A stretch of DNA of 64,000 nt from Candidatus Moraniibacteriota bacterium (GCA_049304095.1 JBAQNU010000029.1:34222-98221); one strand, 5' to 3'; shown: positions 10,198-57,163, counted from the first letter of the stretch. Notes: generated from the letters alone by a model not told the origin. Translations and numbers: made by a program.

Positions 10198-10320
10198 TTG
10201 AAATTATTGTTTAGGTTTTTTATTGAAATCTATGTAGCACCTAAATCATACCACAGATTTTTTTGACTTATATTGCTTTTCTCCCCTCGCACACTCTCAA
10301 AAATTGCTCGAAAAGCATCA

Positions 10321-11073
10321 TCATTTAATTCCTTTCCAAATAAAATTGATAAAGTTTTTCTGCAAATCAGCAATCGCCTTATCTTTAATGATAACACCGA
10401 TTAGATTTTTGAAAGAGATGAAAGCAACTGTATCATCCACTACAAGAAGATTAGTTTCAAATTTGAATCCTTCTGGCAGTTGTTTGCTTTTGATAAATTT
10501 TTTATATTCCGGATTATTTAGTGTTTCAATATTATTTTCAGTTTTTTCGACTAAACTATAAAGCATTCCGCCATTATTATAGAGAATCATGAGCAAGTCA
10601 TGATTTTCTTTTATTGAGAAGAGGTTAAAGAGATTGTCAGGAGAAAACATGGAATAGATATTTTTATGCGTATCAAAGATCTGCTGATAAACCTTTTTTA
10701 TCCCTTCCTTGCCTTCATAGAAACTGATGTTGGGTTTTTGAAATTTTGCGGAATAAAGCGACTCGAGCTCTGGAATAACTTTTTCCATTTTTCTTTTTTT
10801 TTCTTCAATTTGTCTTTTTTGCACATCCAAAAGCCCCGTGATTTTTCTTGGATTTTCAAGACAATAGGAAATCCGCTTTCCATCAACTGTTTTATAGACC
10901 AAGCCGGAACTAGAAAGACTTTCAATGTATTCATAGACAGTCGTTCTTTTAATGCCAGTTTTGCGAGAAATATCCGTGATCGTTCCTTTGCCTAAAACTA
11001 AAATAGCCAGATAAACAGCTATTTCTTTAGCGGATAAGCCTAAAATGCTAAGTTTTTCTTTAATATTTTCCAT
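10321..11073 (-). CDS. TrmB-like HTH transcriptional regulator, paralog 1
   Basis: The N-terminal LGLSAKEIAVYLAILVLGKGTITDISRKTGIKRTTVYEYIESL is a TrmB-type winged HTH. It is paralogous to 12688..13452 and 20778..21515. Confidence 0.7.
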   Translation of the reverse strand: MENIKEKLSILGLSAKEIAVYLAILVLGKGTITDISRKTGIKRTTVYEYIESLSSSGLVYKTVDGKRISYCLENPRKITGLLDVQKRQIEEKKRKMEKVIPELESLYSAKFQKPNISFYEGKEGIKKVYQQIFDTHKNIYSMFSPDNLFNLFSIKENHDLLMILYNNGGMLYSLVEKTENNIETLNNPEYKKFIKSKQLPEGFKFETNLLVVDDTVAFISFKNLIGVIIKDKAIADLQKNFINFIWKGIK

Positions 11074-11200
11074 AAGCCTAGATTAGCATGTTTTCCAAGT
11101 TTCGTCAATAATTTTCGTCACATTTTATACTAATATAAAATAACTATGGCTATTTTAAAGCTTTTTAACATAATTAGTCATCGCTATTAGTCCGATATTA

Positions 11201-11229
11201 TTGACGTATTGACTAAAATTTGCTATACT
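11201..11229 (+). promoter_or_regulatory. sigma70-like promoter TTGACG-N17-TATACT sharing the AAATTTGCTATACT motif with the promoters of the other two TrmB-like paralogs
   Basis: ttgacgTATTGACTAAAATTTGCtatact. It is oriented toward the small ORF at 11287. Confidence 0.45.
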
Positions 11230-11286
11230 AGCTTGTCATAGTTCATTAATAATCAATGGTCAGTGATTACTGGCGAAGGAGGTAAA

Positions 11287-11439
11287 ATGTACGAAAGAAA
11301 AAAAATAACGCTAGTCGACTGGCTTTTATTGCCAGTTGCGATAATCCTAAACATCCTAGAATATCTAGGATGGCAGAGAATCGCATTGTTAGTCGTGACA
11401 GTACTGCTAACGCGATTCTTTTGGGTATTTCTTTGGTAG
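11287..11439 (+). CDS. 50-aa hydrophobic peptide (mini transcription unit: promoter, RBS, ORF, terminator)
   Basis: aGGAGGtaaaATG RBS. Product MYERKKITLVDWLLLPVAIILNILEYLGWQRIALLVVTVLLTRFFWVFLW. A terminator follows immediately. Confidence 0.45.
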   Translation: MYERKKITLVDWLLLPVAIILNILEYLGWQRIALLVVTVLLTRFFWVFLW

Positions 11440-11444
11440 TCTCA

Positions 11445-11483
11445 AGGGAAGTGTTCATCGCGACACTTCCCTTTTTTATTTTT
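11445..11483 (+). terminator. rho-independent terminator (GGGAAGTGT..ACACTTCCC plus a T-run); near-duplicate of the terminator at 14410
   Basis: aGGGAAGTGTtcatcgcgACACTTCCCttttttattttt. It shares the 17-nt aagggaagtgttcatcg with 14409-14425. Confidence 0.65.
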
Positions 11484-11514
11484 AAAAAATCGACAAATTC
11501 TTTTTGGTTCTGGC

Positions 11515-11620
11515 TTTTGTTTTTTTCTTTATTCAACCTCAAACGCACCACCTTTGTTTGAGTTTTTCGCCCCAAGCCACATGCTCTCAAAAATCGCCCG
11601 AAAGCCATTGTGGATTTTTT
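11515..11620. repeat. 106-bp direct repeat copy A (about 96% identical to 12674..12779); an intergenic relic of a TrmB-like gene 3' end
   Basis: Compared directly with copy B: 4 mismatches. The minus-strand translation gives FESMWLGAKNSNKGGAFEVE*, matching the C-terminus of the TrmB-like protein 12688..13452. Confidence 0.8.
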
Positions 11621-11696
11621 ATGCTATAATCAAAATACGGTAAAATTACCTACCTGAGCCATAAATGTTAAAAATTAATACTAGCTAGTAAGAAAT

Positions 11697-12437
11697 ATGA
11701 GACTAAAAAATAAAATTGCCTTAATAACCGGATCAAGCAGGGGGATTGGTAGGGCCACCGCCTTGTTATTCGCAAAAGAAGGCGCAAAAGTTGTAGTTAA
11801 TTATTTTTCCTCTGAGAAAGAGGCATTTGCCGTTGTTGATGAAATTAAAAAAATAGGCTCAGAAGTAATTGCAATAAAATGTGATATTTCCAAAGAAAAT
11901 GAAGTTATTGAAATGATTAACCAAGCAGTGGAAACTTTCGGAGGAATTGACATTCTTGTTAATAACGCAGGAATTGTTTATGATGTCCCGCTTTTTGAAA
12001 GAAGCGTTGAACAATGGAAAAGGACGTTGGATGTCAATTTGCTCGGAACTTTTCTTTGTAGTAAATATGCTTCCGAGCAAATGCTAGAAAAGACTGGCGG
12101 AAGAATAATTAACATATCTTCAACAAATGCCATAAATAGCTTCAGCCCAGACGCGATTGATTATGACGCTTCAAAAGCGGGCATAATAACCCTAACTAAA
12201 GATTTCGCGAAAGAACTTGCTCCAAAGATACAGGTTAATGCAATTGCTCCAGGTTGGGTAGATACTAACATGAATAAAGATTTATCCAAAGAATTTATTG
12301 AAGATGAAACAAGCAAGATATATCTGAAAAGATTTGCGCAACCAGAGGAAATAGCAAAAGCAATTTTATTTTTTGCAAGTGATGATGCTAGTTATATTAC
12401 AGGAAGCGTTCTAGTCGTAGATGGCGGACACGATTAA
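11697..12437 (+). CDS. short-chain dehydrogenase/reductase (FabG-like SDR)
   Basis: TGSSRGIG cofactor motif, NNAG, and the YDASKAG catalytic YxxxK. 246 aa. Confidence 0.85.
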   Translation: MRLKNKIALITGSSRGIGRATALLFAKEGAKVVVNYFSSEKEAFAVVDEIKKIGSEVIAIKCDISKENEVIEMINQAVETFGGIDILVNNAGIVYDVPLFERSVEQWKRTLDVNLLGTFLCSKYASEQMLEKTGGRIINISSTNAINSFSPDAIDYDASKAGIITLTKDFAKELAPKIQVNAIAPGWVDTNMNKDLSKEFIEDETSKIYLKRFAQPEEIAKAILFFASDDASYITGSVLVVDGGHD

Positions 12438-12673
12438 TTTGGTTGCTCAATATAACGTCTTCTCCCCTTTCAACTTAAATGTTTTTCGCCTCTCGCGTGC
12501 TCTTGAATATCGCCCAAGTCTTGGCTTTTTTTCCAGCGGATGGCCCGAGCGATGTGGACAAATAAAAAAAGACCCTCCGCTAAGTGTGGTGTATAAACCA
12601 CGGCCGAAAGCCTTTTTCTATCTCTAATATTACCAGGTTCTGAGAATATGTCAATAGCGCAATTCCGCACTGG

Positions 12674-12779
12674 TTTTGTTTTTTTCTTTATTCAACCTCA
12701 GACGCACCACCTTTACTTGAATTTTTCGCCCCAAGCCACATGCTCTCAAAAATCGCCCGAAAGCCATTGTGGATTTTTT
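12674..12779. repeat. 106-bp direct repeat copy B, forming the 3' end of the TrmB-like gene 12688..13452
   Basis: See copy A. The two copies flank the SDR gene about 1.16 kb apart. Confidence 0.8.
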
Positions 12780-13452
12780 GACTCTCAATGATAATCCCGA
12801 GATCCTCCCCATAGGAAATGATACCGATTTTCGTTTTGCCATAGATTTTTATTTCAATATCAAACTCAGAAAAAACATTATTGGACACAAACTGGGTTAC
12901 GACAATGAATTTTTGCATTTTTTGTGAGGCTTCCCTATTCACCTGTGTATCCGGAGCAAGCACGCGCATCCAAATCTTTTTCTCTACTCGCTTGGGATTG
13001 TAATATTCCCAAAAAAACTCTTCGCCCAAATTGAGATAGGGATAGGGCATCCAAGTCAGGATTTCGCTGTCTGGATATTTTAGTGTATCTTCAAAAATTT
13101 CTTTCACACTCTCCACTCCTTCAAAATAGCTAATCCGTGGCTTTTTTTCCAAAAGGTTCATCATGGAGATCAGCTGGGGCATCGCTTCTTCCAAGCCTTT
13201 TTTCTTTTCTTCCAACGAATCAATCATTTTTTGCGGGTTTTCAGCGAAAAAAACCGGCCGGGTTTTGTGACGCGATTGATTGATGAGCCTTTTTTCCTTG
13301 AGAATTTCCAGCATATCATAGACCGTAGAGCGCTTTATCTGCGACTTTTTTGTAATTTGGACAATTGTCGCCTCGCCCAACTCCAAAATCGCCAGATAGA
13401 CCTTGGCCTCGCGCTCCCCCAGTCCTGCCTTGATTAATTGTTGTAAAACCAT
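12688..13452 (-). CDS. TrmB-like HTH transcriptional regulator, paralog 2
   Basis: N-terminal LGEREAKVYLAILELGEATIVQITKKSQIKRSTVYDMLEILKEKRL. Its last ~25 aa are encoded by repeat copy B. Confidence 0.7.
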   Translation of the reverse strand: MVLQQLIKAGLGEREAKVYLAILELGEATIVQITKKSQIKRSTVYDMLEILKEKRLINQSRHKTRPVFFAENPQKMIDSLEEKKKGLEEAMPQLISMMNLLEKKPRISYFEGVESVKEIFEDTLKYPDSEILTWMPYPYLNLGEEFFWEYYNPKRVEKKIWMRVLAPDTQVNREASQKMQKFIVVTQFVSNNVFSEFDIEIKIYGKTKIGIISYGEDLGIIIESQKIHNGFRAIFESMWLGAKNSSKGGASEVE

Positions 13453-13491
13453 ATATTTCTAGCTATTAACGCCATTTGCGTCGTTATTCTA

Positions 13492-13520
13492 AGTATAGCA
13501 AATTGTGCCTATTTTGTCAA
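13492..13520 (-). promoter_or_regulatory. promoter of TrmB-like paralog 2: TTGACA-N17-TATACT with the AATTTGCTATACT motif
   Basis: The reverse complement reads ttgacaAAATAGGCACAATTTGCtatact, 40 nt upstream of the ATG. Confidence 0.5.
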
Positions 13521-13579
13521 TATATAAGCCAAATTACGTAATCTATATTTCTATTATATTCAAGACACTATCGCAACTA

Positions 13580-13608
13580 GTGACAAAATTGTCAAAATGA
13601 GCTATAAT
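13580..13608 (+). promoter_or_regulatory. promoter GTGACA-N17-TATAAT overlapping a TGACA-N4-TGTCA palindrome (operator-like)
   Basis: agTGACAaaatTGTCAaaatgagcTATAATgac. It drives the gene starting at 13671. Confidence 0.5.
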
Positions 13609-13670
13609 GACAAGTCATGAAATAATTCGTGACATGCACATTAAAAACTATAAAAAAAGGAGTGAATACC

Positions 13671-14402
13671 ATGGAAAGAATAAATAGGTGTGACCACCTG
13701 ACTGCGTTGATTAAAGCCAATTGTATTGAAAAAGCCTTGGAGATAATTATTTCAGAAAAAGAGTGCCATTTGGCATCTAGCGCTGTTTGTGCAGCACTAA
13801 ATTGCGAGAATGCACCGACGGGGCTAATCGAAGTGGCGCTCGAAAAATTCCGGAGCACCTATGAATATAATGGGGCGGCACATCAACAATGGACCTACCA
13901 ATATTCCCAGTTCTCTGACAGGCTGTGGAAAAGGAGGCTAACCAAATGGATACGCGAGTTCAACGAGGTGTCCTTCAGAGGAACAAGTCGGTTTGGTTGT
14001 CACCGACTAGAATGTTCCGATCGTTTCGTTCATGATTTTGTAAGATTTTCCACTTGGAGTGATGACCCAGCAAAATTTCATCTGACTTTAGAAAATTTGA
14101 AGTGGCTGGATTGGAAAACTCAATGTTGGTGTGATTCTATAGAATACGGAAAAGCTCGCATAGGGGCGAGCAAGTTTGAAACGGAGAAAGATTTCTTGCT
14201 ATGGGAACTTTCTCTGCCACTCGAGACTTTTCGAGAGTTGGATTATCAGACTCAAAAAAAAGCCATTCCCGTAGTAAAGCTGTATAGTCGTTTATGCAGA
14301 CTTGAAGAACTCTTTGTAAACACATCCACTTGCGAATTCCTGAATCTCAGGAAGGAGCTCGCGAGAATTGAACTAGAGCAAATTGAAGATCTTGAGAAGT
14401 AG
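13671..14402 (+). CDS. hypothetical Cys/Trp-rich protein, GC-richer than its surroundings by eye
   Basis: Start chosen at the ATG preceded by aaaGGAGtgaatacc; the ORF track begins at 13629. There is no recognisable family motif. Many Cys and Trp residues. Terminator at 14410. Confidence 0.5.
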   Translation: MERINRCDHLTALIKANCIEKALEIIISEKECHLASSAVCAALNCENAPTGLIEVALEKFRSTYEYNGAAHQQWTYQYSQFSDRLWKRRLTKWIREFNEVSFRGTSRFGCHRLECSDRFVHDFVRFSTWSDDPAKFHLTLENLKWLDWKTQCWCDSIEYGKARIGASKFETEKDFLLWELSLPLETFRELDYQTQKKAIPVVKLYSRLCRLEELFVNTSTCEFLNLRKELARIELEQIEDLEK

Positions 14403-14409
14403 TACCTAA

Positions 14410-14449
14410 GGGAAGTGTTCATCGTAACGCTTCCCTTTTTTTATTTTTC
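14410..14449 (+). terminator. rho-independent terminator, near-duplicate of the one at 11445
   Basis: aaGGGAAGTGttcatcgtaaCGCTTCCCtttttttattttt. Confidence 0.65.
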
Positions 14450-14456
14450 ATACCAA

Positions 14457-15227
14457 CTAGCACCCTTCCATAAACTCTATCATTTTCTTGATTTCGCTTT
14501 TTTTAATATTTTTGCGAAAATATTCTTTGGTCATATCTTTGGGGAAATGCGCAGCTGAGGTGTGGGTAATCAGAAGATTTGATGCCTCGGCTTGAAACTT
14601 ATGAATAATTTTGTCCGCCAAAACTGAACCGTCGTGCTTATTTATTACTAAAATATACGGGCGGTTTCCAAGAGAACAACCATGATTCTTATTAACCAAA
14701 AGTATCTTAGCCGTTTCAAAAAAAGTTCGCGCATCAATTTCGTTCAAATATTTTTTGATTTTTTCGTTAATGTTCGCGCTAGAGCCGAACAAAAATTTTC
14801 CTTGAAAAAACGGGCTGTGCCACGCGCGATAGAAAATATTGAAAAACCGCAAAACTGAAATCATACCAACAAAAAGAATTTTTTGTCTAGTTGATAGGTT
14901 CAAAGAAGCTGTTCCCAGATATGGCTCTATTGCGAGAATCCCTTTGCAATGCTTTTTGTCTTTGACTAAATTCACCACCACAAACCCAAAAGAAACCCCA
15001 GCGATCCAGTAGCTTTCCAATTTGAGTTTTTTGATTTCTTTTTTTACATAGAGCGCATAGCTCTCCAACTCGATTTTTTTCAGCGGCGCAATCGTTTTAA
15101 CAAAGCCAGGCAGATCGATTGGATAAACCGTGAAATAGTCTCGCAAAAAATCATAGAAGCCCTTGAGAATAAAGCTATTGGTCGGAAATGAATGCACAAT
15201 GACTAGATTTGGTTTTGGTTTTTTCAT
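14457..15227 (-). CDS. alpha/beta hydrolase fold protein
   Basis: IAGVSFG nucleophile elbow. Start taken at the internal MKKPKPNLVIVHS (15227) because the ORF-track start at 15278 would overlap the upstream dinD-like gene. Confidence 0.55.
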   Translation of the reverse strand: MKKPKPNLVIVHSFPTNSFILKGFYDFLRDYFTVYPIDLPGFVKTIAPLKKIELESYALYVKKEIKKLKLESYWIAGVSFGFVVVNLVKDKKHCKGILAIEPYLGTASLNLSTRQKILFVGMISVLRFFNIFYRAWHSPFFQGKFLFGSSANINEKIKKYLNEIDARTFFETAKILLVNKNHGCSLGNRPYILVINKHDGSVLADKIIHKFQAEASNLLITHTSAAHFPKDMTKEYFRKNIKKSEIKKMIEFMEGC

Positions 15228-15249
15228 TTTATTATAATCTTGTTCCTGT

Positions 15250-16098
15250 TTATTTATTTCTTTTTTTCTTCCCCGCACCCCTAATTAACTTCTTATCCTC
15301 CGACTTTATTTTCCTTTCCACCTTTTTCACATCCTCTTCCGGTGGCAAATTTTCTGGCACAATGCCACGACTCATTAAAGTTTTTCTGACACTTTTATTG
15401 TTTGTGATATGCTCATTGGAAATGGCGCTCTCTGTTTGCATATTTTTCCTTTTCGCATTAAAAATCGTGATCTCCGTCGCAAAATCCTTAGCTTTGAGAA
15501 GAATGGTTGGCATAAAATCAGCCAGCGGCTTGCTATCTTTAATATTCCATCTTACTTTCATCTCCTGTGTCGTTTTACTAAAAAGCGCCTTATCTCCTTT
15601 GCTACGAATAAAAGCAAAGTTTCGATTATCGCCCGTTTGTTCAAAAATAACAACAGAAAGTTCTTTTTCTGTTTTTGAAAGTTTTTTTCTGGCTTGTAAT
15701 CTTTCTGATTCCAAAATCCGCTTCTCAATTATTTCTAATTTCCTTGTCTGAACGGCAAAATATGTTTGAGCGAAAGCGATTTCATTTTTCTTCGGATCAC
15801 CATTTTGGGCTATAAGATAACACGCATAGCGCGTAAGCATAATATCATCTATCTCCTTTTTCGCACCCGAGCCGATGGTGACCATTTTGTTGACGTCAAC
15901 AAAATGGTCTGGAATAGATTGTCCTGAAACATCGCAGGCTATTTTGGCCTTTTCTATAACACCTACAAAATTTCTCCATTCATTGTAGCCAAGCAAATAT
16001 TGCAAGTCACGAGCCAACCAAAACTCTAAACCATTGACTGCTTTTTGACCAATTGATTCAAAATTCTTGGTCAGTGATTTTATAATTTCTTTTTCCAT
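15250..16098 (-). CDS. dinD: DNA damage-inducible protein D (DinD) homolog
   Basis: [44 protein letters not shown] and QTYFAVQTR parallel E. coli DinD (WSARELAPLLDYRDWRNF, DHFVETTKMV, LSRYACYLVVQNGDP, QTYFAIQTR). Confidence 0.7.
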
Positions 16099-16362
16099 AA
16101 ATTCATTTTAAATAAAGCTAATTATGACCCTAGCTAGATTATATCATGTCTCGTTCCACGCTATCATTCTCCCAGCTCCCACAAAGAATCAAAAAATTCT
16201 TGCTGGCTTTTGGCTTTGCGGTTAAAAAATTTCTTAAGTATTTAGCATTTTAGGTTAACTGAGGAGCTCAGCTATTTTAGCCGCGCACCGCTCTCCATAT
16301 CCCACCACCACAATTCCTTCCAGCTGAGTTTGACTAGGCTGTAAATTTCAAAATCTAAGTTT

Positions 16363-17493
16363 TTACTTTTCTACAATTTTATTCGCGGCATATATGCCGG
16401 TTATAAATGCATCTTCCAGCCCTACCACATTATAATCACCAATAAGATATAAGTTGTCATCCACATTTGCCTCAATTAAACTGTGCCCGTTGATATTGCC
16501 GACCGGTTTCCAAAATTTGTGCTCAATCACGGAAGCTTCTGTGAAAAATTCTCTAAAATTCGGCTTTTGTTTTTTTGAATAATAAAGATACGTACCGTCT
16601 AGCTGGCGAGAGATCGCCAGAGTGTCCATATTTGGATCAAACATTTGAAACTCCCCTTTTTTGATTTTGAAATTCGGTTTTCCCTTAACATGGAACATGT
16701 GCGCATCAACTGGCTTATTAATTTTTTCTTTTATTTTTATTAGTTTTCTCGATGTCTCGATTTGAGTGGCTAAAACAACGTTTTTTGTTTTATAAGTAGC
16801 TGTTTTTGTGCAGACAATATAGTTATTTTTTTCCTTCTCAATCTTAATCACACAATCTATAATGATTTTATTTTTAAACCGAGCAATCATTGAATCCTTT
16901 TTGAATCTAAATTCATAAAATGGCACAATAAGTGGCAATGAAAATTGCAAATAATTAAAAGCATTCATATCACTAATCGGAGAAAATGTGCACGCGTTCA
17001 GACTTTGAGCAATAATATTTCTTGTCAACTCTTCTAATTGATGCTTTTTGATAAAATCCTCAACCTTAGTTTTAAAAAGCTGCAAAAGGTAGTCATCCTC
17101 TTCAAGCGCCTGCTTTTGCGATATAGTTTCAGACTTTTTTCTGAATACATAGAAGTGTTTTCTAAATTTTCTCAACAAAAAAATCAGACGCACGAATTGT
17201 GGCAAATAAATCAGTGATCTCAAGCTAAAAAGCAAATAATTTCTAGACTTTTTGTGAAACAAAAATTTTGACAATCTGATTCTCCTGCCCAAAAAAACAT
17301 GCTGAAGAAAATGGTTGTAGTCCTCACAAACAAAATACGCGCCATAATTAACATTTCCATCATCTGACGTTAAAATTCTCCCGCCGATATCTTCTGAAAT
17401 TAACAAAAAATCTTTTTTAGCCTCATCCAACCTCTTCGCACAGGCCAGTCCAGCTATACCACCACCAATAATTATTGTTTCGATATTTTTCAT
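16363..17493 (-). CDS. FAD/NAD(P)-binding oxidoreductase (amine-oxidase-like fold)
   Basis: N-terminal IIGGGIAGLACA dinucleotide-binding motif. 376 aa. Confidence 0.55.
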   Translation of the reverse strand: MKNIETIIIGGGIAGLACAKRLDEAKKDFLLISEDIGGRILTSDDGNVNYGAYFVCEDYNHFLQHVFLGRRIRLSKFLFHKKSRNYLLFSLRSLIYLPQFVRLIFLLRKFRKHFYVFRKKSETISQKQALEEDDYLLQLFKTKVEDFIKKHQLEELTRNIIAQSLNACTFSPISDMNAFNYLQFSLPLIVPFYEFRFKKDSMIARFKNKIIIDCVIKIEKEKNNYIVCTKTATYKTKNVVLATQIETSRKLIKIKEKINKPVDAHMFHVKGKPNFKIKKGEFQMFDPNMDTLAISRQLDGTYLYYSKKQKPNFREFFTEASVIEHKFWKPVGNINGHSLIEANVDDNLYLIGDYNVVGLEDAFITGIYAANKIVEK

Positions 17494-17533
17494 ATTCGCA
17501 ACGCTCCCCTTTTTTATTTTAAATGCCTTGATT

Positions 17534-17974
17534 TTAATTCAGTTCTTTCTCTTCCATTTCTCGCTCCTGTTTTTTCTCCTTTTCGACGACATATTCTTCC
17601 GTTTTTTCAAAAACAGCCTTAGCATCTTCTCCTTTTTCAGCTAATTTTTTTGCAAATTCAAAAACATCTCTTACTTCTTCCAAGTTTTTACCCACATCCC
17701 AGACAGAATAGCCACCAATATTCAAACAATGCTGGCCCTCGCTGGGGCTGAATTCAGTAATAAACATCTTAATTCCATTAAATTCTCCGCTACACTGATG
17801 GCCGATATTAACTGATTGCATGTAATCCATTTGGCCATCAGTCAAATTAAAACGCCCATCCTTTCCTTCAATCGCTCCACCACTTTTTAAACGATCATCG
17901 GACTTCTTTCTTTTTTCCTTAAAATTTTTTATTTGTTCAGCTGTTAATGGTTTTGGCATTTCATTGATTCCCAT
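17534..17974 (-). CDS. hypothetical protein
   Basis: 146 aa ORF with an acidic C-terminal tail and no recognisable motif. Confidence 0.35.
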   Translation of the reverse strand: MGINEMPKPLTAEQIKNFKEKRKKSDDRLKSGGAIEGKDGRFNLTDGQMDYMQSVNIGHQCSGEFNGIKMFITEFSPSEGQHCLNIGGYSVWDVGKNLEEVRDVFEFAKKLAEKGEDAKAVFEKTEEYVVEKEKKQEREMEEKELN

Positions 17975-18060
17975 ATTTTTTTGCTGGCAAATGAATTGCC
18001 AAAGTTATTGATTAAATCTCTATAATCAATATTATAGCAAAACAGCCACAAATCACAAAC

Positions 18061-18627
18061 TTAAAGCGCCATATCCATAAACTCTTTTCTCTTCTCGTGG
18101 TCTTCCTTGAAAATTCCCCGGGCGTCCATTGTGGTCATTTCGCCGTTACTTTTTTTGACTCCACGCATTTCTTTGCAGAGATGTCGGGCTTTCATGATCA
18201 GGATTGTGCCTTTTGGTTTTAACTCTTTTTCAATCGCATCAAGAATTTCTCTGGTTAGAGTTTCCTGAACTTGCAGTTTGGCGCAGTAATAGTCAACTAG
18301 GCGAGCAATTTTACTCAGACCAATGATTTTGCCATTTGGGATGTAGCCAAAATAATATTCTCCAAAAAATGGCACCATATGATGTTCACAGTGGCTATAG
18401 AAATAGCCATGATCAGAAACTAGTTGCTCAGAACTTGAATTGGAATTGCTAAAGCTGGTCAACTTGGGCTTCTTTTTTAGATCATAGCCCAAAAACATTT
18501 CCTGATACATCCGCGCCACCCTATCTGGCGTGTCCCCGAGTCCCTCTCGAGATGGATTTTCGCCAAGTTCAATTAGAATATTTCTTACTAAATTTGCTAA
18601 TTTTTTCGTGTTCATATTATTCAGCAT
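18061..18627 (-). CDS. folE: GTP cyclohydrolase I
   Basis: GLGDTPDRVARMY, CEHHMVPF and GLSKIARLVDYYCAKLQVQE are signature FolE motifs. Confidence 0.85.
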   Translation of the reverse strand: MLNNMNTKKLANLVRNILIELGENPSREGLGDTPDRVARMYQEMFLGYDLKKKPKLTSFSNSNSSSEQLVSDHGYFYSHCEHHMVPFFGEYYFGYIPNGKIIGLSKIARLVDYYCAKLQVQETLTREILDAIEKELKPKGTILIMKARHLCKEMRGVKKSNGEMTTMDARGIFKEDHEKRKEFMDMAL

Positions 18628-18967
18628 AAGTTATTGATGAATTATCTGCTTCCCAAACTGTAATCGCTATATTTGTGTTTTTGTTGTTTTTAAAATTAAG
18701 CTTGATCTTATCGTGAATATATTTGGAGATTAATTCCGCTGTTGGTTCAAAAGGCAAAAGCTTGTTGAGATTTTTGTGATCAAGTTCATTCACGATTTCT
18801 TTCAACTTAGTAAAGTCGATGACCATATTTTTTTTAAGTTTTTTTGAATTTATTTCAATCAAAACTTTCCAGTTGTGGCCATGAATCGAATCGTTGCATT
18901 TTTTATCATAGGCATTGGTCAGTTGATGCGCTGCACTGAAATTTGTGGTTAATCTTAGAGTGTACAT
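18617..18967 (-). CDS. queD: 6-carboxy-5,6,7,8-tetrahydropterin synthase / 6-pyruvoyl-tetrahydropterin synthase family
   Basis: FSAAHQL and HGHNW motifs. 116 aa. The gene overlaps folE by 11 nt. Confidence 0.75.
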   Translation of the reverse strand: MYTLRLTTNFSAAHQLTNAYDKKCNDSIHGHNWKVLIEINSKKLKKNMVIDFTKLKEIVNELDHKNLNKLLPFEPTAELISKYIHDKIKLNFKNNKNTNIAITVWEADNSSITYAE

Positions 18968-18986
18968 ATTGTTGTTACTTTAAAAA

Positions 18987-19694
18987 TTATTTTATTCTTA
19001 GCTCATATAATCTCCATTTGTAATCCATGCGAAAGGGTTTTTCGGCAATGATTTGCAACTCATACCCGGCATCAATAATCATTTTTTCTAAACCATCAAA
19101 GTCTGCATTTGAATTTTCCCTCTTTCCACTTTGCAAATTAGCATGAGGCAACAAAATTCGTCCGTCATTAGTAAGATGTTTTTTAGCTTGCGCTAGAAAG
19201 TTTTTGTGGATTATGTGATTATTGTCATATAGCGCCAAGTCGATTAAGTCTTTTCCTCCGTCAAAATCAATAAAGGGAAGATTAGCTAAGATTAAATCAT
19301 ATTTTTTAGAGCTCTCAATCCTCGCGAAAAGATCTGACAATATGAATGTTATTTTTTCATCTACTTTGTTTATTTGAGCATTTTCCTTGGAACATTTTAA
19401 CGCTTCGGGATTTATATCAATCGCGTCAACATGCTTTGCTCCAAAAAGAGCTGCGCTAATTGCTTCAATTCCACTCCCCGTGCCAATGTCAGCAACTTCG
19501 GCATTCGCGAGATTAGGAAAATTCTTCACAAATTCGCCGAGCAAAAATTCTTGTTGCGGCGGAAATACTTCGGGAAAGATCTTGAGTGAAATGTTTTTTC
19601 CCACGCAATTAACACTCATCGGATATGCTCCTTTTTCAGATTCACGTTTAATTTGATTGCGAAAATAAATTGTTGATTCTGGATTGATTTTCAT
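18987..19694 (-). CDS. class I SAM-dependent methyltransferase (small-domain HemK/RsmC-like)
   Basis: DIGTGSGIEAI (motif I) and ANLPF (NPPY-like motif IV). Confidence 0.6.
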   Translation of the reverse strand: MKINPESTIYFRNQIKRESEKGAYPMSVNCVGKNISLKIFPEVFPPQQEFLLGEFVKNFPNLANAEVADIGTGSGIEAISAALFGAKHVDAIDINPEALKCSKENAQINKVDEKITFILSDLFARIESSKKYDLILANLPFIDFDGGKDLIDLALYDNNHIIHKNFLAQAKKHLTNDGRILLPHANLQSGKRENSNADFDGLEKMIIDAGYELQIIAEKPFRMDYKWRLYELRIK

Positions 19695-19761
19695 AAATTT
19701 TTTCTAATAGTTAAGTTATTTTGCTTGATTATATGAAAAATGTTGCTTGATAAAATTAGGT

Positions 19762-19794
19762 GAGTCAGGATGCCTACAATAAACATCCTGACTC
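19762..19794 (-). terminator. stem-loop (11-bp perfect stem) immediately downstream of the GC-rich methyltransferase gene
   Basis: GAGTCAGGATGcctacaataaaCATCCTGACTC. The minus-strand 3' flank is only moderately T-rich. Confidence 0.4.
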
Positions 19795-19798
19795 GTGG

Positions 19799-20557
19799 TT
19801 ATTTTTTGGCGATTACCTGCCAGAAGGCAGGGTAGCCAGTCTCGCCAGACTGGTTGCAGGCAGCCAGGGCCTCTGCCGTGACATACTTGCTTTGCGAGTG
19901 CATTACACTGAAACCTGCCTCTACTAGGAGATCCACGAGCGCCTGGTGCGGATGGCACCAAATCACCGAATGAAATACTTCTCCTAGTGAGTTGGCGTAT
20001 TCCTCACGGAATTGCTGACTCTCCGTTAGTGGCCTATCACTGAGCGGGAAATATTTTGCCCAGTTAGACCGACCGGTCCGATTTGGACTATCTACACTAA
20101 ACAAATACTCGTTTAATGTAGATACGACTACACGACCGCCAGATCTCAGAACTCGGTAAGCTTCTCGAAAAAAGCTTAGGCACTCATCGGGGCTATCCTG
20201 CAACAAAACTGCGATGCAGGCAATTGCGTCAAAGGAGTTACTGGCGTATGGCAGATTGGTGATATCTGCCATAGAATATTCAATGTCCAAAGGCTTTGAA
20301 TATTCCAAGTCTCTGGCCGCTGAGAGCAAGACTTCTGCTCTATCGCAACCAAGAACCTTTGCCCCTGACCACGCCAGCCGGCGAGTGCAAAATCCCGCGC
20401 CGCATCCGGCATCAAGGATTTTCTCTCCCACCTGTGGATTGAGCAGTTCAATAGCTGGCAGGCGACCAAGATAGTCGCCCATAACCATTAATCTGTCGCC
20501 CTTTTCGGTCCAAAATGACGCATTGTCATCGTAGACCTTTATTTCTGGAATTATCAT
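19799..20557 (-). CDS. class I SAM-dependent methyltransferase (Methyltransf_11-like), markedly GC-rich
   Basis: LDAGCGAGFCTRRL motif I. By eye the gene is roughly 50-55% GC against roughly 35% in the surrounding DNA. Confidence 0.7.
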   Translation of the reverse strand: MIIPEIKVYDDNASFWTEKGDRLMVMGDYLGRLPAIELLNPQVGEKILDAGCGAGFCTRRLAWSGAKVLGCDRAEVLLSAARDLEYSKPLDIEYSMADITNLPYASNSFDAIACIAVLLQDSPDECLSFFREAYRVLRSGGRVVVSTLNEYLFSVDSPNRTGRSNWAKYFPLSDRPLTESQQFREEYANSLGEVFHSVIWCHPHQALVDLLVEAGFSVMHSQSKYVTAEALAACNQSGETGYPAFWQVIAKK

Positions 20558-20718
20558 GGAGTTTCTCCTTTTTTCTTAGCTTAATTTAAGGTACTGCGTC
20601 TCGCTTTGGCCATTCCTCAGCTTGACTCAAAACTATACCATAAATTCAAGAAAATGGTGGAAAGTATGTCAAATTGCTAAAATAGCAAAATTAAATCAAC
20701 GTAAAAATGGCTTATTAA

Positions 20719-20747
20719 TTGACAAAATAAACTAAATTTGCTATACT
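20719..20747 (+). promoter_or_regulatory. promoter of TrmB-like paralog 3: TTGACA-N17-TATACT with the AAATTTGCTATACT motif
   Basis: ttgacaAAATAAACTAAATTTGCtatact, 30 nt upstream of the ATG at 20778. Confidence 0.5.
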
Positions 20748-20777
20748 ATTAGTGATGACATAAATAATATCATTTAT

Positions 20778-21515
20778 ATGCAAACACCCCATAAAGACCT
20801 CGAGGAAGCTGGGCTAAAAGAAAAGGAGGCTAAAATCTATCTCGCCATCCTTGAGCTTGGAGAGGCTAATATCGCTCAAATTAGCCTTAGATCAGGCATA
20901 AACCGTAGCACAGTCTATTTGGCGCTGAAAACCTTAAAAGAAAAGGGCTTGCTTTTAACTGTCAAAAAGAATAAAACGCTTTTTTATGCCGAAGATCCGC
21001 GAAAAATGCTGGGTGATTTGGAAAAAAAGAAGGTTGTGTTGGAACGGATAATGCCCAACCTTTTGGCTAGCTTTGCTTTTATTGATAATAAGCCGGAAGT
21101 AAAGTATTTCGAGGGCGAAGAAGGGATCAAGAAAATCTATGAAGACGTCCTAAAAACGCCCAACTCGGAGATGTTGGCCTGGTATTCCAATGATTATCAG
21201 GAATTTTTTGACGAAAAATTCTTTTTTGAATATTTTATTCCCGAGCGGAAAAGAAAAAAAATTTGGCTCCGCTCAATCTACCCAGAAGACCCATCAATGC
21301 GCGCCCTGGCTTCAAATAATGAGGAGCAGTTGCGCCAATCGCGCTTTATCAGCAATGAAAAATTTAAAATTGAAAGTGAAATTTGTCTTTATGAGCACAA
21401 TAAAATAGGCATCATTGCCTATAAAGATAAGCTAGGGATCATAATCTCCAGTCAGACTATTTTCAACACTTTGAAATCAATTTTTGAGGTGATGTGGGAC
21501 GGGGCAAGCAAATAA
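20778..21515 (+). CDS. TrmB-like HTH transcriptional regulator, paralog 3
   Basis: LKEKEAKIYLAILELGEANIAQISLRSGINRSTVYLALKTLKEKGLL. 245 aa. Confidence 0.7.
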   Translation: MQTPHKDLEEAGLKEKEAKIYLAILELGEANIAQISLRSGINRSTVYLALKTLKEKGLLLTVKKNKTLFYAEDPRKMLGDLEKKKVVLERIMPNLLASFAFIDNKPEVKYFEGEEGIKKIYEDVLKTPNSEMLAWYSNDYQEFFDEKFFFEYFIPERKRKKIWLRSIYPEDPSMRALASNNEEQLRQSRFISNEKFKIESEICLYEHNKIGIIAYKDKLGIIISSQTIFNTLKSIFEVMWDGASK

Positions 21516-21572
21516 TTTCTTTTATGCTATAATTCGATCAGTTACGAGGCCAACTACTAACATATTCAATAT

Positions 21573-22289
21573 ATGGAAAAACTCACTTCAACAAACGAAC
21601 TCAAAAAAGATTCCTCCATCTCTTTTTTTGATAAACACGGAAAAGAATATGTCGAAAATCAAAGAAAATTCTATTCCCAGGCTCCTGATACGGGACGTGA
21701 ATTTTTTCGAGACTCATTGCGAGCTGACATTGAAAAAATGACTATCGCTGATATCGGTTGCGGTGCCGGAGATGATCTCATAACCTACAGAGAACTAGGA
21801 GCGAAAAAAGTAATTGGGATTGAGCCGTCCCTATCCATGCTTTCTGAAGCTAAAAAAACACTCGGCGAAAACTATCCTGATATAGAACTAGTTGCTGGTA
21901 ATTGGAAGCATCTTCCCCTTGCCGACGATAGTATGGATGCCATCATGGGACGTTACTCGTTCCATGTCATGTCAGATTTTGACGAGGCCATCTTGGAAGT
22001 CGCGCGCGTTCTTAAAAAAGACGGGCTATTCTTGATTGCCGCACCTCATCCAGATCATGATGCAAAAATAGCTGCCGAACAAAATTTGAAACTGGGAGAA
22101 AAAATGAGAATTCCAATTTTCGAAGGAAAATTCATCGTTGAAAATCCTCCGCACACACTGAAAGACTATCTTTCAAAAACTTGCCTTGAAAATTTTATCC
22201 TGGAAGAACAAAAAGACTATTCGATGTTCGAAGATGAAAATGAAACCGATCCGACAGGGATATTACTAAAATTAAGAAGGAAAAACTAA
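21573..22289 (+). CDS. class I SAM-dependent methyltransferase
   Basis: IADIGCGAGDDL motif I and an acidic motif II. 238 aa. Confidence 0.7.
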   Translation: MEKLTSTNELKKDSSISFFDKHGKEYVENQRKFYSQAPDTGREFFRDSLRADIEKMTIADIGCGAGDDLITYRELGAKKVIGIEPSLSMLSEAKKTLGENYPDIELVAGNWKHLPLADDSMDAIMGRYSFHVMSDFDEAILEVARVLKKDGLFLIAAPHPDHDAKIAAEQNLKLGEKMRIPIFEGKFIVENPPHTLKDYLSKTCLENFILEEQKDYSMFEDENETDPTGILLKLRRKN

Positions 22290-22324
22290 AAAAAACAACC
22301 AGCAACAATTCTGCATTTTCCGTA

Positions 22325-22352
22325 GGGACAAATCTTGTATTTGTCCTTTTTT
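22325..22352 (+). terminator. rho-independent terminator of the methyltransferase gene
   Basis: GGACAAATcttgtATTTGTCCtttttt. Confidence 0.6.
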
Positions 22353-22395
22353 GGGGGTTTGCGGTTTCCCCATGTCTTGTGATTTTCCTGGGTTC

Positions 22396-22595
22396 GGGAC
22401 AGACACAAGGTCTGTCCCTACGATATTGTTTATAATTCCATCTGGATATATTTTCAATATTATTCCCTCCGTAGGGGTTTGATTCATCAAACCCTGGCGC
22501 GGTAAACCCTTGCAAAATAAACCCCGATTCGTCAAACCTCGACATATCCACGCCTATTGCGATTGGATTACACCTGGGTTCGATGAATCGAACCC
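22396..22595. repeat. cluster of three further perfect hairpins and short repeated motifs (ccgtaggg..., cctgggttcg...) in a 347-bp convergent intergenic region
   Basis: Hairpins GGGACAGACacaagGTCTGTCCC (22396-22418), GGGTTTGAttcaTCAAACCC (22475-22494) and GGGTTCGAtgaaTCGAACCC (22576-22595). The ccgtaggg and cctgggttcg motifs each occur twice. Confidence 0.45.
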
Positions 22596-22636
22596 CTACA
22601 ATATTTTGATTTATTTCAATTATCATGTGAATATTT

Positions 22637-22918
22637 TTATTTCATCCGAATCCGCTCCACCACCACCTCGCCAATTTCTTTGTTGATTAAATCGGCAACT
22701 TTTCCGCGATTGGTCCAAAGCTCGGTTTTCCAGACTGAGCTTTCGCTTTTTACAAACAGGGTTTTTCCGGCGAAATAGTCCGGCACAAATTTTTCGGCGC
22801 CAATATTGCCAAACTGCGCGCGAATGACTTTGCGAAAGACAAAAAAGACTGTTTTATCATCCAGCACTTGGACTTTTTTGAAGTTTTTGCCACCCAAAAG
22901 GTCGCCTAGAGCTTTCAT
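22637..22918 (-). CDS. DUF721 (DciA-like) small protein downstream of dnaN
   Basis: SSVWKTELWTNRGKVADLINKEIGEVVVERIRMK matches the DUF721 C-terminal pattern SSVW..EL...K..L..KIN...G...V..I.F. The position after dnaN is typical. Confidence 0.65.
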   Translation of the reverse strand: MKALGDLLGGKNFKKVQVLDDKTVFFVFRKVIRAQFGNIGAEKFVPDYFAGKTLFVKSESSVWKTELWTNRGKVADLINKEIGEVVVERIRMK

Positions 22919-22923
22919 AGGGA

Positions 22924-24087
22924 CTAATTTTTAATTGGCATCACGATATAGGTAAAGCCAGTGACAAGCTCTCCATTTTCAGAAGCCACCTCACGCAATG
23001 CCACTGGCGAAGCATCACTGTTGGCTAGGAGAGCTAGTTTATTAGAGGTGATAGCGTTGATTCCTTCAAGAAGATATTTCAGATTGAAAACCACCTCTTG
23101 AGATGCGCCCTGCACTTCAAATTTAATCTCAGTGGAGTTTTCACCCACTTCCGCGCTCTTGGTGTTGAGAAAAATATTTTTCGCCGTCTCGTCGATTTTA
23201 AGCACCACTTCACTGGATTTACTATTCACAAAAACTCCCGCGATTTTTAGCGCATTTTGTAATATCTTTTTTTCTCCTAAGATAGTTGTTTTATAACTCT
23301 CCGGCATAATATGCTTATATTCAGGATATTTTCCATTAATGAGGCGCGAAACAATTTTTATTCCATCAACCTCAAAAAATATCTGTCCTTCTTCAATAAA
23401 AATTTGCACCACACTTTTTTCATCCAAATTACCAGAAATAATCCGATTAAGTTCCACTATTGTGCTCGCGGGAACAATAATACTTTTGGTTTTTTCCATA
23501 AAACTTTGATATCTCACTAGATCACACTCACAATCCGTGATCGCTAGCACATATTCTGATAAACGAAAACCATCAGTGGAAGCAAAAAAGATAAATTTTT
23601 CATCAAAAACCACATTTATCCCAGAAAGTTCCTGTCTAGCGTCACTGCGCGCAACGGAAATTAAAATTTTAGCAAAAATATCCCGCAAGCGCCCACTAGA
23701 AACACCCAAAATTGCTTCGGTGCTTTTTTGAGGAATAAGTGGAAAATCTTCCGCTGAAAAACCTTTAATATTTGCCTTTGTTAGGCCACTTTTTATTTTC
23801 AAATTATCTCCATTTTTTTCTAATTCAATATTCTCTCCATCAATTAAATTAGTAGAAAAACTACCCAAAAACTTAGCTGGAATAGTGATTTTCCCTTCCT
23901 GCTCAATTTTCGCTCCAATTTTAATTTCAATTCCAATCTCTAAATTTGTTGCCACAACCTTCAGATAACTCTTAGTTGCTTCAAGGAGGATATTATTTAA
24001 GATTGGTAGTGAATTTTGCTTAGATACAATTCGTTCAGAATTAATAATGGCTTTTTTAAAATTCTCTCCTGTGCAAATCAGTTTCAT
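22924..24087 (-). CDS. dnaN: DNA polymerase III beta sliding clamp
   Basis: 387 aa three-domain clamp. N-terminal MKLICTGENFKKAI..SLPILNNILLEA. It lies directly downstream of dnaA and oriC. Confidence 0.9.
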   Translation of the reverse strand: MKLICTGENFKKAIINSERIVSKQNSLPILNNILLEATKSYLKVVATNLEIGIEIKIGAKIEQEGKITIPAKFLGSFSTNLIDGENIELEKNGDNLKIKSGLTKANIKGFSAEDFPLIPQKSTEAILGVSSGRLRDIFAKILISVARSDARQELSGINVVFDEKFIFFASTDGFRLSEYVLAITDCECDLVRYQSFMEKTKSIIVPASTIVELNRIISGNLDEKSVVQIFIEEGQIFFEVDGIKIVSRLINGKYPEYKHIMPESYKTTILGEKKILQNALKIAGVFVNSKSSEVVLKIDETAKNIFLNTKSAEVGENSTEIKFEVQGASQEVVFNLKYLLEGINAITSNKLALLANSDASPVALREVASENGELVTGFTYIVMPIKN

Positions 24088-25742: not shown

Positions 25743-25977
25743 GGGAATGGTGGAAAATAATTAGAAATATAGAACGCAATTTAAGGCGTTGCTATTTAGA
25801 GAGAGTATAGCACAGCAAAAACAAATCGCAAGAAAAATGGTGCATAAATCTGGGGATAAGCTGTGTATAGACATGTAAAACCTATTTTTGGCCGTAGTTA
25901 GTTGACTTTTTTGGGGATTATTGGTAAGCTTTGAATACGTCTAGGAACTAATTATTTAAGGAGCAGACTCTAAAAAT

Positions 25978-56065: not shown

Positions 56066-56452
56066 TTAGATTGCTTTAATGTGCTTAATCCTTGCTCTTC
56101 TTGTGTTCATGTTAATCCAAATAGCAATTACATCAAAACGATAAGCATAAGCTAGGAGATTGTTAATTTTTAGATAAAAATAGGCGATTTTGTCTAACTT
56201 TTGCATTTTATGGTAATTGACATTTTCTTCTGGCAAGGTGTCTCGAAATTTTTGCATTTCTCTGGATTTTACCTCAACAAAAACTAATTCATTTTTTTTC
56301 AAATCTTTGGCAATGATGTCAATCTCTCCTAGTCGACGGCCACTTGGGTTGGCATAGTTCATGGCGATAATCTCATAACCCTTGCTTTTGAGATAGTTGG
56401 CGGCAATGCTTTCACCAAGATTGCCAAGTGCTTTTTTGGCTGTAATGCTCAT
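56066..56452 (-). CDS. yraN: YraN-family (UPF0102) endonuclease
   Basis: GESIAANYLKSKGYEII..N......GEIDIIA.......VFVEVKSR is the YraN/Holliday-junction-resolvase-like signature. Confidence 0.75.
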   Translation of the reverse strand: MSITAKKALGNLGESIAANYLKSKGYEIIAMNYANPSGRRLGEIDIIAKDLKKNELVFVEVKSREMQKFRDTLPEENVNYHKMQKLDKIAYFYLKINNLLAYAYRFDVIAIWINMNTRRARIKHIKAI

Positions 56453-57163
56453 ATTTAAAGTTTAGCAGAAATTTTTAGGGAAAACAAAAAACACCCTTTC
56501 TTTGGTGCTTATTTTTTCTATCATACTATTAAATCCCCTCTCTTTTTCGTCGGTTTTCAGAGCTAGGCTGAAAACCGACGGGCTCAACACCCAATAAAAA
56601 ATAAATTTGGCGAGAGCCCGCCAGCTGTTTGTCATATACTAACAGGTGATGCGGAAACGATTTAGTCCGGGTGAGACATCGTCGTTATGACACGCCTGTA
56701 TTTTATGTATATAACGCAAGATTATTTCTATCCTGACGTTAGAAATGTTGTTTTACCATTCTCTGGTGATTTTTCACCTTTGAATTTGAAAGAACTATTG
56801 TTTTTATTATTTATTTTTATATTTTTATAAATAATTTTTGTTTTTATTTTGGGTCTCCGATGTCAGAAATCGAAGCGGTCTCGACGCGTTGGTCGTGACA
56901 CTTGAACAGTAAAACAATTTTCAATCACAAATAGGGGGAAATTGTGATTGAAAATTGTGTTACCGTTCCGTTACTTTCAAGTTTTTAATGTTCAATATAT
57001 CTATTATAGCAAAACTTGGAGTGTGCGTCAACGCTAAAATTAGTTTTGGCTTTGAATCGCGTTATCTGCAATTAAATGAGCGGAATTTTTTTAAAATGGG
57101 ATATGGGATAAATTGGCGAAAATAAAAAGTCAGCTACTTTTTTAGGGCTAGGGCAAGCGTTTT
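56453..57163. other. 711-bp non-coding region containing very stable stem-loops (candidate structured ncRNA or leader)
   Basis: 13-bp perfect hairpin CGTCGGTTTTCAGagctaggCTGAAAACCGACG (56538-56570). 10-bp perfect hairpin TCAATCACAAatagggggaaaTTGTGATTGA (56921-56951). No ORF of 60 aa or more on either strand. Confidence 0.35.

Follow-up and report, generated by a model that had tools for sequence, protein, structure and literature searches.

Three divergent units of short TrmB-family regulators with putative private operators in a Candidatus Moraniibacteriota genome

Three genes for TrmB-family regulators, here called par1, par2 and par3, are encoded in a 64,000-nt stretch of DNA (the window) from a Candidatus Moraniibacteriota bacterium (GCA_049304095.1, JBAQNU010000029.1:34222-98221), each of them back to back with a divergently transcribed gene of another kind. 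The reading that we favour, with some reserve, is that they represent three old groups of the family in divergent units, that the short sequence shared by three promoters of the region is a sequence for RNA polymerase, and that each regulator has a private operator, which it would bind to repress its own transcription until a ligand relieves the repression.

The best matches of all three regulators are proteins of Candidatus Moranbacteria/Moraniibacteriota and of Parcubacteria metagenome-assembled genomes, and the window therefore comes from a bacterium of the candidate phyla radiation (CPR, or Patescibacteria). Related loci from such genomes carry L numbers below. The pattern used to scan genomes, KIW[VLM]RxI[YAL]P, is blind to the orthologs of par2 (which reads RVLAP), and these were reached by other searches; a metagenome scan with par2 returned a single distant locus. 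The exact protein sequence of par3 is not on record.

Three old groups of short TrmB-type regulators

An earlier note on this DNA had described three TrmB-type helix-turn-helix (HTH) regulators, and the three open reading frames (ORFs) were confirmed, each with a PF01978 (TrmB) domain at residues ca. 8-70. The E-values were 7e-15 for par1, 1e-13 for par2 and 4e-16 for par3, and the scores (55, 50.9 and 59.1 bits) all pass the gathering cut-off of 25.6. A profile of the family matches TrmB (3qph) over residues 7-152, with an E-value of 1e-10. The AlphaFold2 (AF2) model of par3, the one of the three that was modelled, has a mean predicted confidence (pLDDT) of 85.5 and shows a helix at residues 74-103 followed by an alpha/beta domain. 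In Foldseek it matched TrmBL2 (5bpd) over the full length at an E-value of 2e-12, two further TrmBL2 structures (5box and 5bqt) at ca. 1e-11 to 1e-12, and TrmB (3qph), again over the full length; its C-terminal half matched 2f5t, the N-subdomain of the TrmB effector domain, and phospholipase D (PLD) folds. The sugar-binding domain PF11495 had no match at E<=0.01 in the three regulators, and the NCBIfam equivalogs for TrmB and TrmBL1 failed, with 20-41 bits against cut-offs of 500-650. By profile and model, par1-par3 are short, TrmBL2-like proteins of the TrmB family without the sugar-binding subdomain, and their predicted architecture is that of TrmBL2 – a winged HTH (wHTH), a long dimerisation helix and a PLD-like C-terminal domain. 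A Csa3/CasR-type identity, raised by PADLOC, was rejected as generic wHTH similarity, since only the HTH part of those models matched.

The sugar-sensing regulators TrmB, TrmBL1 and Tgr of the archaeal Thermococcales share with these proteins the PF01978 winged HTH, the dimerisation helix and the PLD-like domain. Also alike are a palindromic site of 17 bp overall and, presumably, repression from a site that lies over the start, immediately past the core promoter. The proteins described here differ in their bacterial CPR host with its sigma-70 promoters, in their length (245-254 aa against ca. 340) and in having no PF11495 match, and their conserved sites are TGNC-N9-GNCA, not the Thermococcales glycolytic motif (TGM), TATCAC-N5-GTGATA, or TACT-N7-8-GAGTA of archaeal TrmB and TrmBL1. 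TrmBL1 and Tgr are reported to act as repressors where the palindrome follows the TATA box and covers the start site, and as activators where it lies upstream; auto-regulation is listed for members of the TrmB family (PMC4158304). TrmBL2 (TK0471/PF0496) is the best full-length structural match and has the same short architecture and a similar length (ca. 262 aa), but its sequence identity is only 13-17%. It is present in abundance, binds DNA for the most part irrespective of sequence and acts as a global repressor; the genomes compared here have many paralogs each, and the group-specific conserved site beside each of them points to specific local regulators and against the chromatin mode of TrmBL2. 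MarR-type and other divergent wHTH repressors are likewise small dimeric wHTH proteins with back-to-back promoters and a pseudo-palindrome overlapping their own -35 or start, but they are another family – MarR structures match the wHTH part only, at E-values of ca. 1e-3, and no MarR Pfam assignment reached threshold.

The three genes had been taken for copies of a duplicated module. The proteins are not each other's closest relatives, however: mutual identity is 27-46%, against 91-95% to orthologs. Within the window par2 and par3 are 46% identical, and par1 is 27-31% identical to either. Identity to orthologs is 44-92% for par1, 52-91% for par2 and 66-95% for par3, whose best match is 89% in the protein collection and 93-95% in the GTDB genomes L005 and L006. 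On this evidence the three regulators belong to three different, old orthologous groups. Nor do the groups stay together: synteny of L005 and L006 with the window is confined to 18064-21515, and L044 has orthologs of par1 and par2 in a different order, without par3.

More widely, the family of short TrmB-type regulators to which the three belong is large and extends across the CPR. Its paralogs often lie close together in CPR genomes, two to four genes within ca. 12 kb; there are four in 12.7 kb in L045 and three each in L013 and L031, and further clusters are found in L006, L009, L014, L016, L020, L041 and L044. Most of the near-consensus sigma-70 promoters in the flanks (+/-6 kb) serve TrmB-like genes or their divergent partners.

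Candidate control sites

Each of the three regulators has a conserved site over its own core promoter or start that is kept in its orthologs. For par2 and par3 this is a pseudo-palindromic element between the -10 and the start codon, here called O2, and for par1 it is a pair of TGACGAAA boxes at the -35. In the par2 group (four sequences: the window, L044, L045 and L046) the element reads GACGC-N5-GCGT(T/C) at the same place in each, and the version in L045 is a perfect palindrome, TGACGCA-ATC-TGCGTCA. The nine sequences of the par3 group, with proteins that are 67-95% identical, differ in the spacer and the -10, but (A/G)TGACATAAATAATATCATT, just upstream of the ATG, shows little or no variation among them. 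This block is a pseudo-palindrome, ATGAC-N9-ATCAT, and 8 loci have the O2 17-mer without any change, of which 6 are distinct (L002 and L008 are duplicates of L001). The six sequences of the par1 group, L040-L044 among them, have an invariant element at the -35, TGACGAAA-N4-(G)TTGAC, and five of the six have the -10 at a distance of 6 nt from the ATG. So short a distance implies a leaderless message, and by its sequence the par1 mRNA is probably leaderless.

The position of O2 is as constant as its sequence is group-specific. The O2-type element starts exactly 7 nt after the -10 in the par2 group, in the par3 group and in many distant members of the family, and at this fixed offset it covers the predicted transcription start. 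The core TGNC-N9-GNCA was found in 21 of 61 TrmB-like upstream regions, against 0.4 in shuffled sequences. A second element, the GGCTTAT box, abuts the -35 on its 5' side in promoters B and C (those of par2 and par3), as it does in most par2-like and par3-like promoters elsewhere; no other promoter of the window has it. Combined with the GACA of the -35, the box makes up TGNC-N9-GNCA as well (O1 in Table 1). The O2 of par2 and the O2 of par3 each have a single exact match in the window, the cognate site. There are no further exact sites of either type in the window, and matches with two mismatches are near chance, so no regulon is defined.

These comparisons make it likely that the O2 pseudo-palindromes (17-19 bp, group-specific) and the GGCTTAT box are the control sites of par2 and par3, and that the TGACGAAA repeat at the -35 is the control site of par1. 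The most likely mode, by analogy with archaeal TrmB and TrmBL1, is autorepression at sites overlapping the transcription start. A dimer of each regulator would bind its own O2 (par2 and par3) or its -35 box (par1) and, once bound, would repress its own near-consensus, intrinsically strong promoter. The dimer may also control the divergent promoter, which the GGCTTAT box and a conserved block at 20650-20673 may tie to the same protein. A ligand on the PLD-like domain would relieve the repression.

The blocks between the -10 and the ATG could instead act as RNA, in an initiation of translation without a Shine-Dalgarno sequence or as a stability element, or they could be a second promoter for a leaderless mRNA; we consider this unlikely, though it accounts for several observations. 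GGAG(G) precedes neighbouring genes, but par2 and par3 are without a Shine-Dalgarno sequence; in the par3 block even the centre does not vary; TAATAT stands 7 nt before the par3 ATG, and the mRNAs of the par1 group are evidently leaderless. The predicted RNA folds of the O2 blocks are weak, however (-1.9 and -5.6 kcal/mol, z -0.05 and -1.8), which favours a role at the level of DNA. The pseudo-palindromic symmetry and the 7-nt offset also recur in distant members with different sequences, and the 7-3-7 palindrome of L045 has no imperfection.

Several points weigh against operators and autorepression as proposed here. The transcription starts are predicted, and binding and repression are deduced from sequence. 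Part of O1 is supplied by the -35 hexamer, so that GGCTTAT alone is independent evidence. The par2 O2 of the window is only a degenerate match to the family core (CGAC..GTTA). In par3 the whole 20 nt of the block are invariant, including the centre, which is more than a dimer operator usually needs; the extra constraint may come from a translation start without a Shine-Dalgarno sequence or from the TAATAT as an internal -10. Finally, the protein that the par3 model resembles best, TrmBL2, is a mostly non-specific DNA binder.

The shared promoter core

Three promoters, A, B and C, read exactly as the earlier note had described them, at the positions given there (Table 1). The exact 13-mer AATTTGCTATACT has three copies in the window, at these promoters only, which is far above the raw-sequence expectation. 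The shared core takes up positions -19 to -7 and consists of the A/T end of the spacer, the TGn of an extended -10 and the TATACT hexamer. The claim that this core drives every regulator holds for par2 (promoter B) and par3 (promoter C) but not for par1, whose own promoter is TTGACG-N17-TAATCT. Between promoters B and C identity is 76% over a length of 58 nt, well beyond the core, with 13 of 17 spacer positions and the GGCTTAT box in common, whereas the likeness of A to either is limited to the TGn-proximal AATTTGC, the TTTGC of which also occurs at unrelated promoters.

Most of the core is a common promoter sequence here. There are 8 copies of TGCTATAMT in the window, including those at the SDR gene (11622), the second methyltransferase (21525), a gene at 18031, an ORF-free stretch (57003) and the presumed dnaA (25804), and TTTGC-TATAAT/TAAAAT is found at unrelated promoters at 57031(-) and 56056(-). 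Related loci, ca. 550 kb in all, gave 59 near-consensus promoters; the -10 follows a TGC in 17 of them, and it is TATACT as often as TATAAT. The sequence TTGACA-N17-TGC-TATACT fits the extended -10 (TGn/TRTGn) class of sigma-70 promoters, and differs from the ordinary members only in the lineage's preference for TATACT and for an AAAT(T) run before the TGC. All unit promoters are of this near-consensus type, and this is why they look alike. The shared AATTTGCTATACT is, in our reading, an RNA-polymerase recognition sequence, mostly the ordinary strong-promoter consensus of the lineage, and not an operator. Three identical AATTTGC 7-mers in one genome are nonetheless unlikely under independence, at a rough estimate of 1e-3 (with ca. 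2/60 in family promoters). We read the identity as a lineage optimum (AAAT-TGC-TATACT) that is kept at intrinsically strong promoters; a lineage-specific constraint or homogenisation may also lie behind it, and the coincidence counts against the reading favoured here.

Recent duplication or gene conversion, in which pieces of promoters and terminators were copied between units within this genome and so homogenised, is improbable in our judgement. Promoters B and C are much more alike than the proteins behind them, and the two copies of a terminator found at the end of the par1 and par2 units are 88% identical. Recombination is clearly active here. A 106-nt direct repeat (D1, 96% identical) brackets the SDR oxidoreductase gene between par1 and par2; the copy on the left, a dead one, repeats the final 30 codons of par2 and 14 nt more, and translates as KIHNGFRAIFESMWLGAKNSNKGGAFEVE* directly after an upstream stop codon. 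The par1-par2 region of the syntenic relative L044 has no SDR gene, and in the window this gene is probably an insertion. Two older, diverged remnants of TrmB-like 3' ends, with translations ..AIFESVRGEK.. and ..QEHARGEK.., lie at ca. 12470-12520, after the SDR gene, and at ca. 10265-10320, directly after the par1 stop codon; together with D1 they look like the product of repeated recombination or insertion at TrmB 3' ends. Against local copying, the GGCTTAT box, TTGACAAAATA, TGCTATACT and the terminator hairpin recur at orthologous positions in L010, L044 and L040, so the similarity is inherited or conserved rather than newly copied, and the coding regions have no sign of conversion.

In the model of the earlier note, the regulators would bind the shared segment AAATTTGCTATACT and auto- or cross-regulate the three promoters through it. 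This is very improbable. The restriction of the 13-mer to these promoters speaks for it, as does the presence of the same 14-mer at the par3 promoter of L010 and at the promoter-A homolog of L044, the 2 of 46 related loci in which the 13-mer was found; but the segment coincides with the contacts of RNA polymerase (spacer end, TGn and -10, with AAATTTGC as the A/T-rich TGn spacer), is not palindromic, is lacking in the promoter of par1 itself, and is not kept in most orthologous promoters (L005, L006, L007, L001, L003, L045 and L046), and TGC-TATAMT also drives dnaA and other unrelated genes. Orthologous promoters read, for example, aataggcTATACT, aaaatgtTAAGCT, tgtaatgtTATTAT and caaatctgcTATACT, and it is other blocks, those described above, that are invariant.

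Divergent units, cargo and genomic setting

Table 1. Features of the three regulator units and of their surroundings in the window
Feature	Position	Strand	Remarks
par1, TrmB-family regulator, 250 aa	10321-11073	-	PF01978; own orthologous group
par1 promoter	11080-11108	-	-10 TAATCT 11080-11085 (ends 6 nt before ATG); -35 TTGACG 11103-11108
Two TGACGAAA boxes of the par1 promoter	11100-11107 and 11113-11120	-	
Promoter A	11201-11229	+	TTGACG-tattgactaaaatttgc-TATACT
Leader of peptide mRNA	11230-11286	+	TTGTCAT start box; boxA-like GTTCATTAATA 11241-11251; then GGAGG
50-aa peptide with two transmembrane segments, par1 cargo	11287-11439	+	
Intrinsic terminator hairpin, copy 1	11444-11483	+	GGGAAGTGTT..AACACTTCCC and T-run
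Left copy of repeat D1	11515-11620	-	96% identical to 12674-12779
SDR oxidoreductase gene	11697-12437	+	Own TGCTATAAT promoter at 11622-11630
par2, TrmB-family regulator, 254 aa	12688-13452	-	PF01978
par2 O2 (candidate operator)	13466-13484	-	ACGACGCAAATGGCGTTAA; pseudo-palindrome GACGC-N5-GCGTT; starts 7 nt after -10
Promoter B	13492-13520	-	TTGACA-aaataggcacaatttgc-TATACT
GGCTTAT box/O1	13515-13531	-	TGGCTTATATATTGACA; overlaps promoter B
Promoter of par2-divergent gene	13580-13608	+	GTGACA-N17-TATAAT; preceded by TATCGC-N5-GTGACA
5' hairpin of par2-divergent transcript	13614-13633	+	-9.7 kcal/mol, z -2.3
par2 cargo, conserved hypothetical all-alpha protein, 243 aa	13671-14402	+	ATG at 13671, GGAG before it
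Terminator hairpin, copy 2	14408-14447	+	88% identical to copy 1; 97.6% to L040 terminator
SAM methyltransferase, par3-divergent cargo	19799-20557	-	Syntenic in L005, L006, L010
par3-divergent control region	20558-20673	-	Conserved block 20650-20673; extended -10 TGgTATAGT, -10 at 20633-20638
GGCTTAT box/O1	20708-20724	+	TGGCTTATTAATTGACA; overlaps promoter C
Promoter C	20719-20747	+	TTGACA-aaataaactaaatttgc-TATACT
par3 O2 (candidate operator)	20755-20773	+	ATGACATAAATAATATCAT; pseudo-palindrome TGACATAAATAATATCA; starts 7 nt after -10
par3, TrmB-family regulator, 245 aa	20778-21515	+	PF01978; AF2 model best matches TrmBL2, TrmB
Second SAM methyltransferase	21573-22289	+	Own TGCTATAAT promoter 21525-21533; outside conserved par3 unit
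DciA-domain gene	22637-22918		
dnaN	22924-24087		
462-aa ORF, presumably dnaA	24354-25742		Promoter at 25804

The description of each regulator as paired with a different cargo stands, as each is back to back with its own divergent gene (Table 1), but the units are ancient and not recently duplicated. They do share control elements, as had been suggested, in the similarity of promoters B and C and in a terminator hairpin behind the par1 and par2 cargo genes; promoter A shares the core only. By comparison between genomes, the constant part of a unit is the regulator with its bidirectional promoter and leader, the cargo differs from genome to genome, and the units are old.

Promoter A points away from par1, as had been noted, and is followed by a GGAGG Shine-Dalgarno sequence, the two-transmembrane peptide and the terminator. 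It had looked like a stray or displaced copy of a regulator promoter, but its role as divergent partner of par1 is conserved in five other genomes (L040-L044), where a promoter stands at the same position and is followed by a YTGTYA start box. In each of those loci the promoter drives small hydrophobic proteins of 55-134 aa, at the same position beside the par1 ortholog and mutually unalignable. The leader of the peptide mRNA has no significant RNA fold (z -0.36). A separate observation concerns a Bro-N domain protein at 15250-16098(-), which is a full-length match to the PADLOC phage-defence candidate PDC-S13 (E 5e-117); Bro-N genes are also found near par1 orthologs in L043.

The par2 cargo had been described as a Cys/Trp-rich orphan. 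It is no orphan – there are 131 cluster representatives at E<=1e-3 and 94 at E<=1e-10 – and has a conserved HGxWVHSxSHF motif and invariant Trp and Arg residues. Its AF2 model is all-helical (pLDDT 92), there was no Pfam or NCBIfam match and no fold match in the PDB, and we are confident, going by the model, that the family is a new fold family. The gene is kept only in the close relative L044, at the same position and with 74% identity; L045 and L046 have other genes there. The par2-divergent promoter and TGACAAGTCA are also kept in L044. A palindrome that follows this promoter, GTCATGAA-ATAA-TTCGTGAC, was rejected as a par2 operator, as its right arm is not kept in L044 and it fits the variable-loop 5' hairpins of other leaders; it is taken as an RNA hairpin. 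Overlapping the par2-divergent -35 at 13569-13585(+) is TATCGC-AACTA-GTGACA, a TGM with two mismatches, which is kept in L044. The window has no exact or one-mismatch TGM, and this is the only two-mismatch site in these intergenic regions; there are 7 such sites in the window, against 1.3 expected, the others not at promoters. One terminator hairpin, GGGAAGTGTT-CATCG-yAACrCTTCCC with a T-run, ends the cargo transcripts of both par1 and par2 and occurs nowhere else in the 64 kb. In L040 (5343-5372) and, twice, in L044 (6706-6735 and 8545-8574), cargo units end with this hairpin as well.

The cargo of par3 is an S-adenosylmethionine (SAM) methyltransferase. At this position L001, L003, L007 and L009 have unrelated genes for small proteins instead. 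The control region of the divergent gene is conserved in 9 orthologous loci, and its leader has a 5' hairpin, the pairing of which is kept by compensatory changes in the stem, and a CCTTAAAT box of the CCTTAAA type. The block at 20650-20673, GAAAATGGTGGAAAGTATGTCAAA (AAAATAGTATAAAAtATGTCAAA in most orthologs), is present in all nine par3 loci, ca. 100-125 nt upstream of par3 and at ca. -20 to -45 of the divergent promoter, and its TGACAT resembles a half-site of the par3 O2. The second methyltransferase is not in the conserved par3 unit, since synteny with L005 and L006 ends at 21515.

Hairpin leaders of this kind were observed on transcripts divergent from TrmB-like genes in L019, L021, L025, L027, L028, L031, L038, L039, L045, L001, L007 and others. 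The hairpin stands 3-5 nt after the -10, with a stem that differs between loci but stays complementary and a loop of 4 to ca. 60 nt that often starts with YTGARRA; in L021 it is ACCTT-GAAAA-AGGT, like lambda boxB. It is followed by AGTTCYTTGARA or CCTTAAA, which resembles the boxA of rrn operons and is also found in other 5' untranslated regions, including the presumed dnaA leader. Weak versions occur in the window at 20558-20632(-), 13609-13650(+), 11230-11260(+) and 25770-25800(-). The hairpin with its boxA-like box was considered as a possible counterpart of the boxB-boxA antitermination leader of rrn operons (boxA-like GYTCTTTRAnAA), and no Rfam family matched the leaders. In L019, L021, L025, L027, L033, L038 and L045 the genes behind such leaders encode receiver-like proteins of ca. 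190-250 aa (MKILVIDD..) beside TrmB-like regulators, which suggests a recurrent pairing of regulator and response-regulator-like protein in Parcubacteria.

A more far-reaching possibility is put forward tentatively. In Moranbacteria and Parcubacteria the TrmBL2-like autorepressor, with its bidirectional promoters, hairpin/boxA-like leader and subclade terminator, may be a portable cassette, the cargo of which is exchanged by recombination in the conserved flanks. The exchanged cargo would include the methyltransferase, small membrane peptides, receiver-like proteins and a radical-SAM protein, and such exchange would have left the TrmB 3'-end remnants around the SDR gene as its scars.

The regulator cluster is 1-14 kb away from a probable replication origin, with dnaN, a DciA-domain gene and the presumed dnaA beside it and the cumulative GC-skew minimum near 24 kb. 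An ORF-poor stretch near the presumed origin, between the second methyltransferase and the DciA-domain gene (22290-22640), has a 26-nt inverted repeat (22321-22346/22397-22422, 85% complementary) and GFDESNPY-coding motifs repeated on both strands. Farther away, a near-consensus promoter at 57031-57003(-), TTGACG-N17-TATAAT, is followed by ca. 550 nt without an ORF of >=70 aa, before a gene at 56066-56452. This ORF-free stretch, 56453-57031(-), contains a 51-nt palindrome-like stretch at 56911-56961 and may be either a long leader or a non-coding RNA that has escaped recognition; it had no Rfam, tRNA or tmRNA match, and a permissive search of 56300-57100 gave chance miRNA matches only. ARAGORN found no tRNA or tmRNA in the whole window, and nothing in the window or in 11 of the loci reached the gathering score in Rfam.

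To our knowledge, CPR bacteria have few recognisable transcription factors, none of them studied experimentally, and no paper linking TrmB with Patescibacteria or CPR was found in the literature. What is described here would be autoregulated wHTH local regulators of a kind already known from the TrmB family. One general lesson is that identical 13-mers at several promoters can be core-promoter consensus and are not necessarily regulatory sites. The short TrmB-type family is expanded and clustered in CPR, and each group has its own conserved site at a fixed position. With a regulator, promoter and leader that stay constant while the cargo changes, these units offer candidate operator sequences that can be tested and a first outline of how genes may be controlled locally in the lineage. 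If the cassette is real, the TrmB-like family would rank among the main organisers of accessory-gene expression in such reduced genomes.

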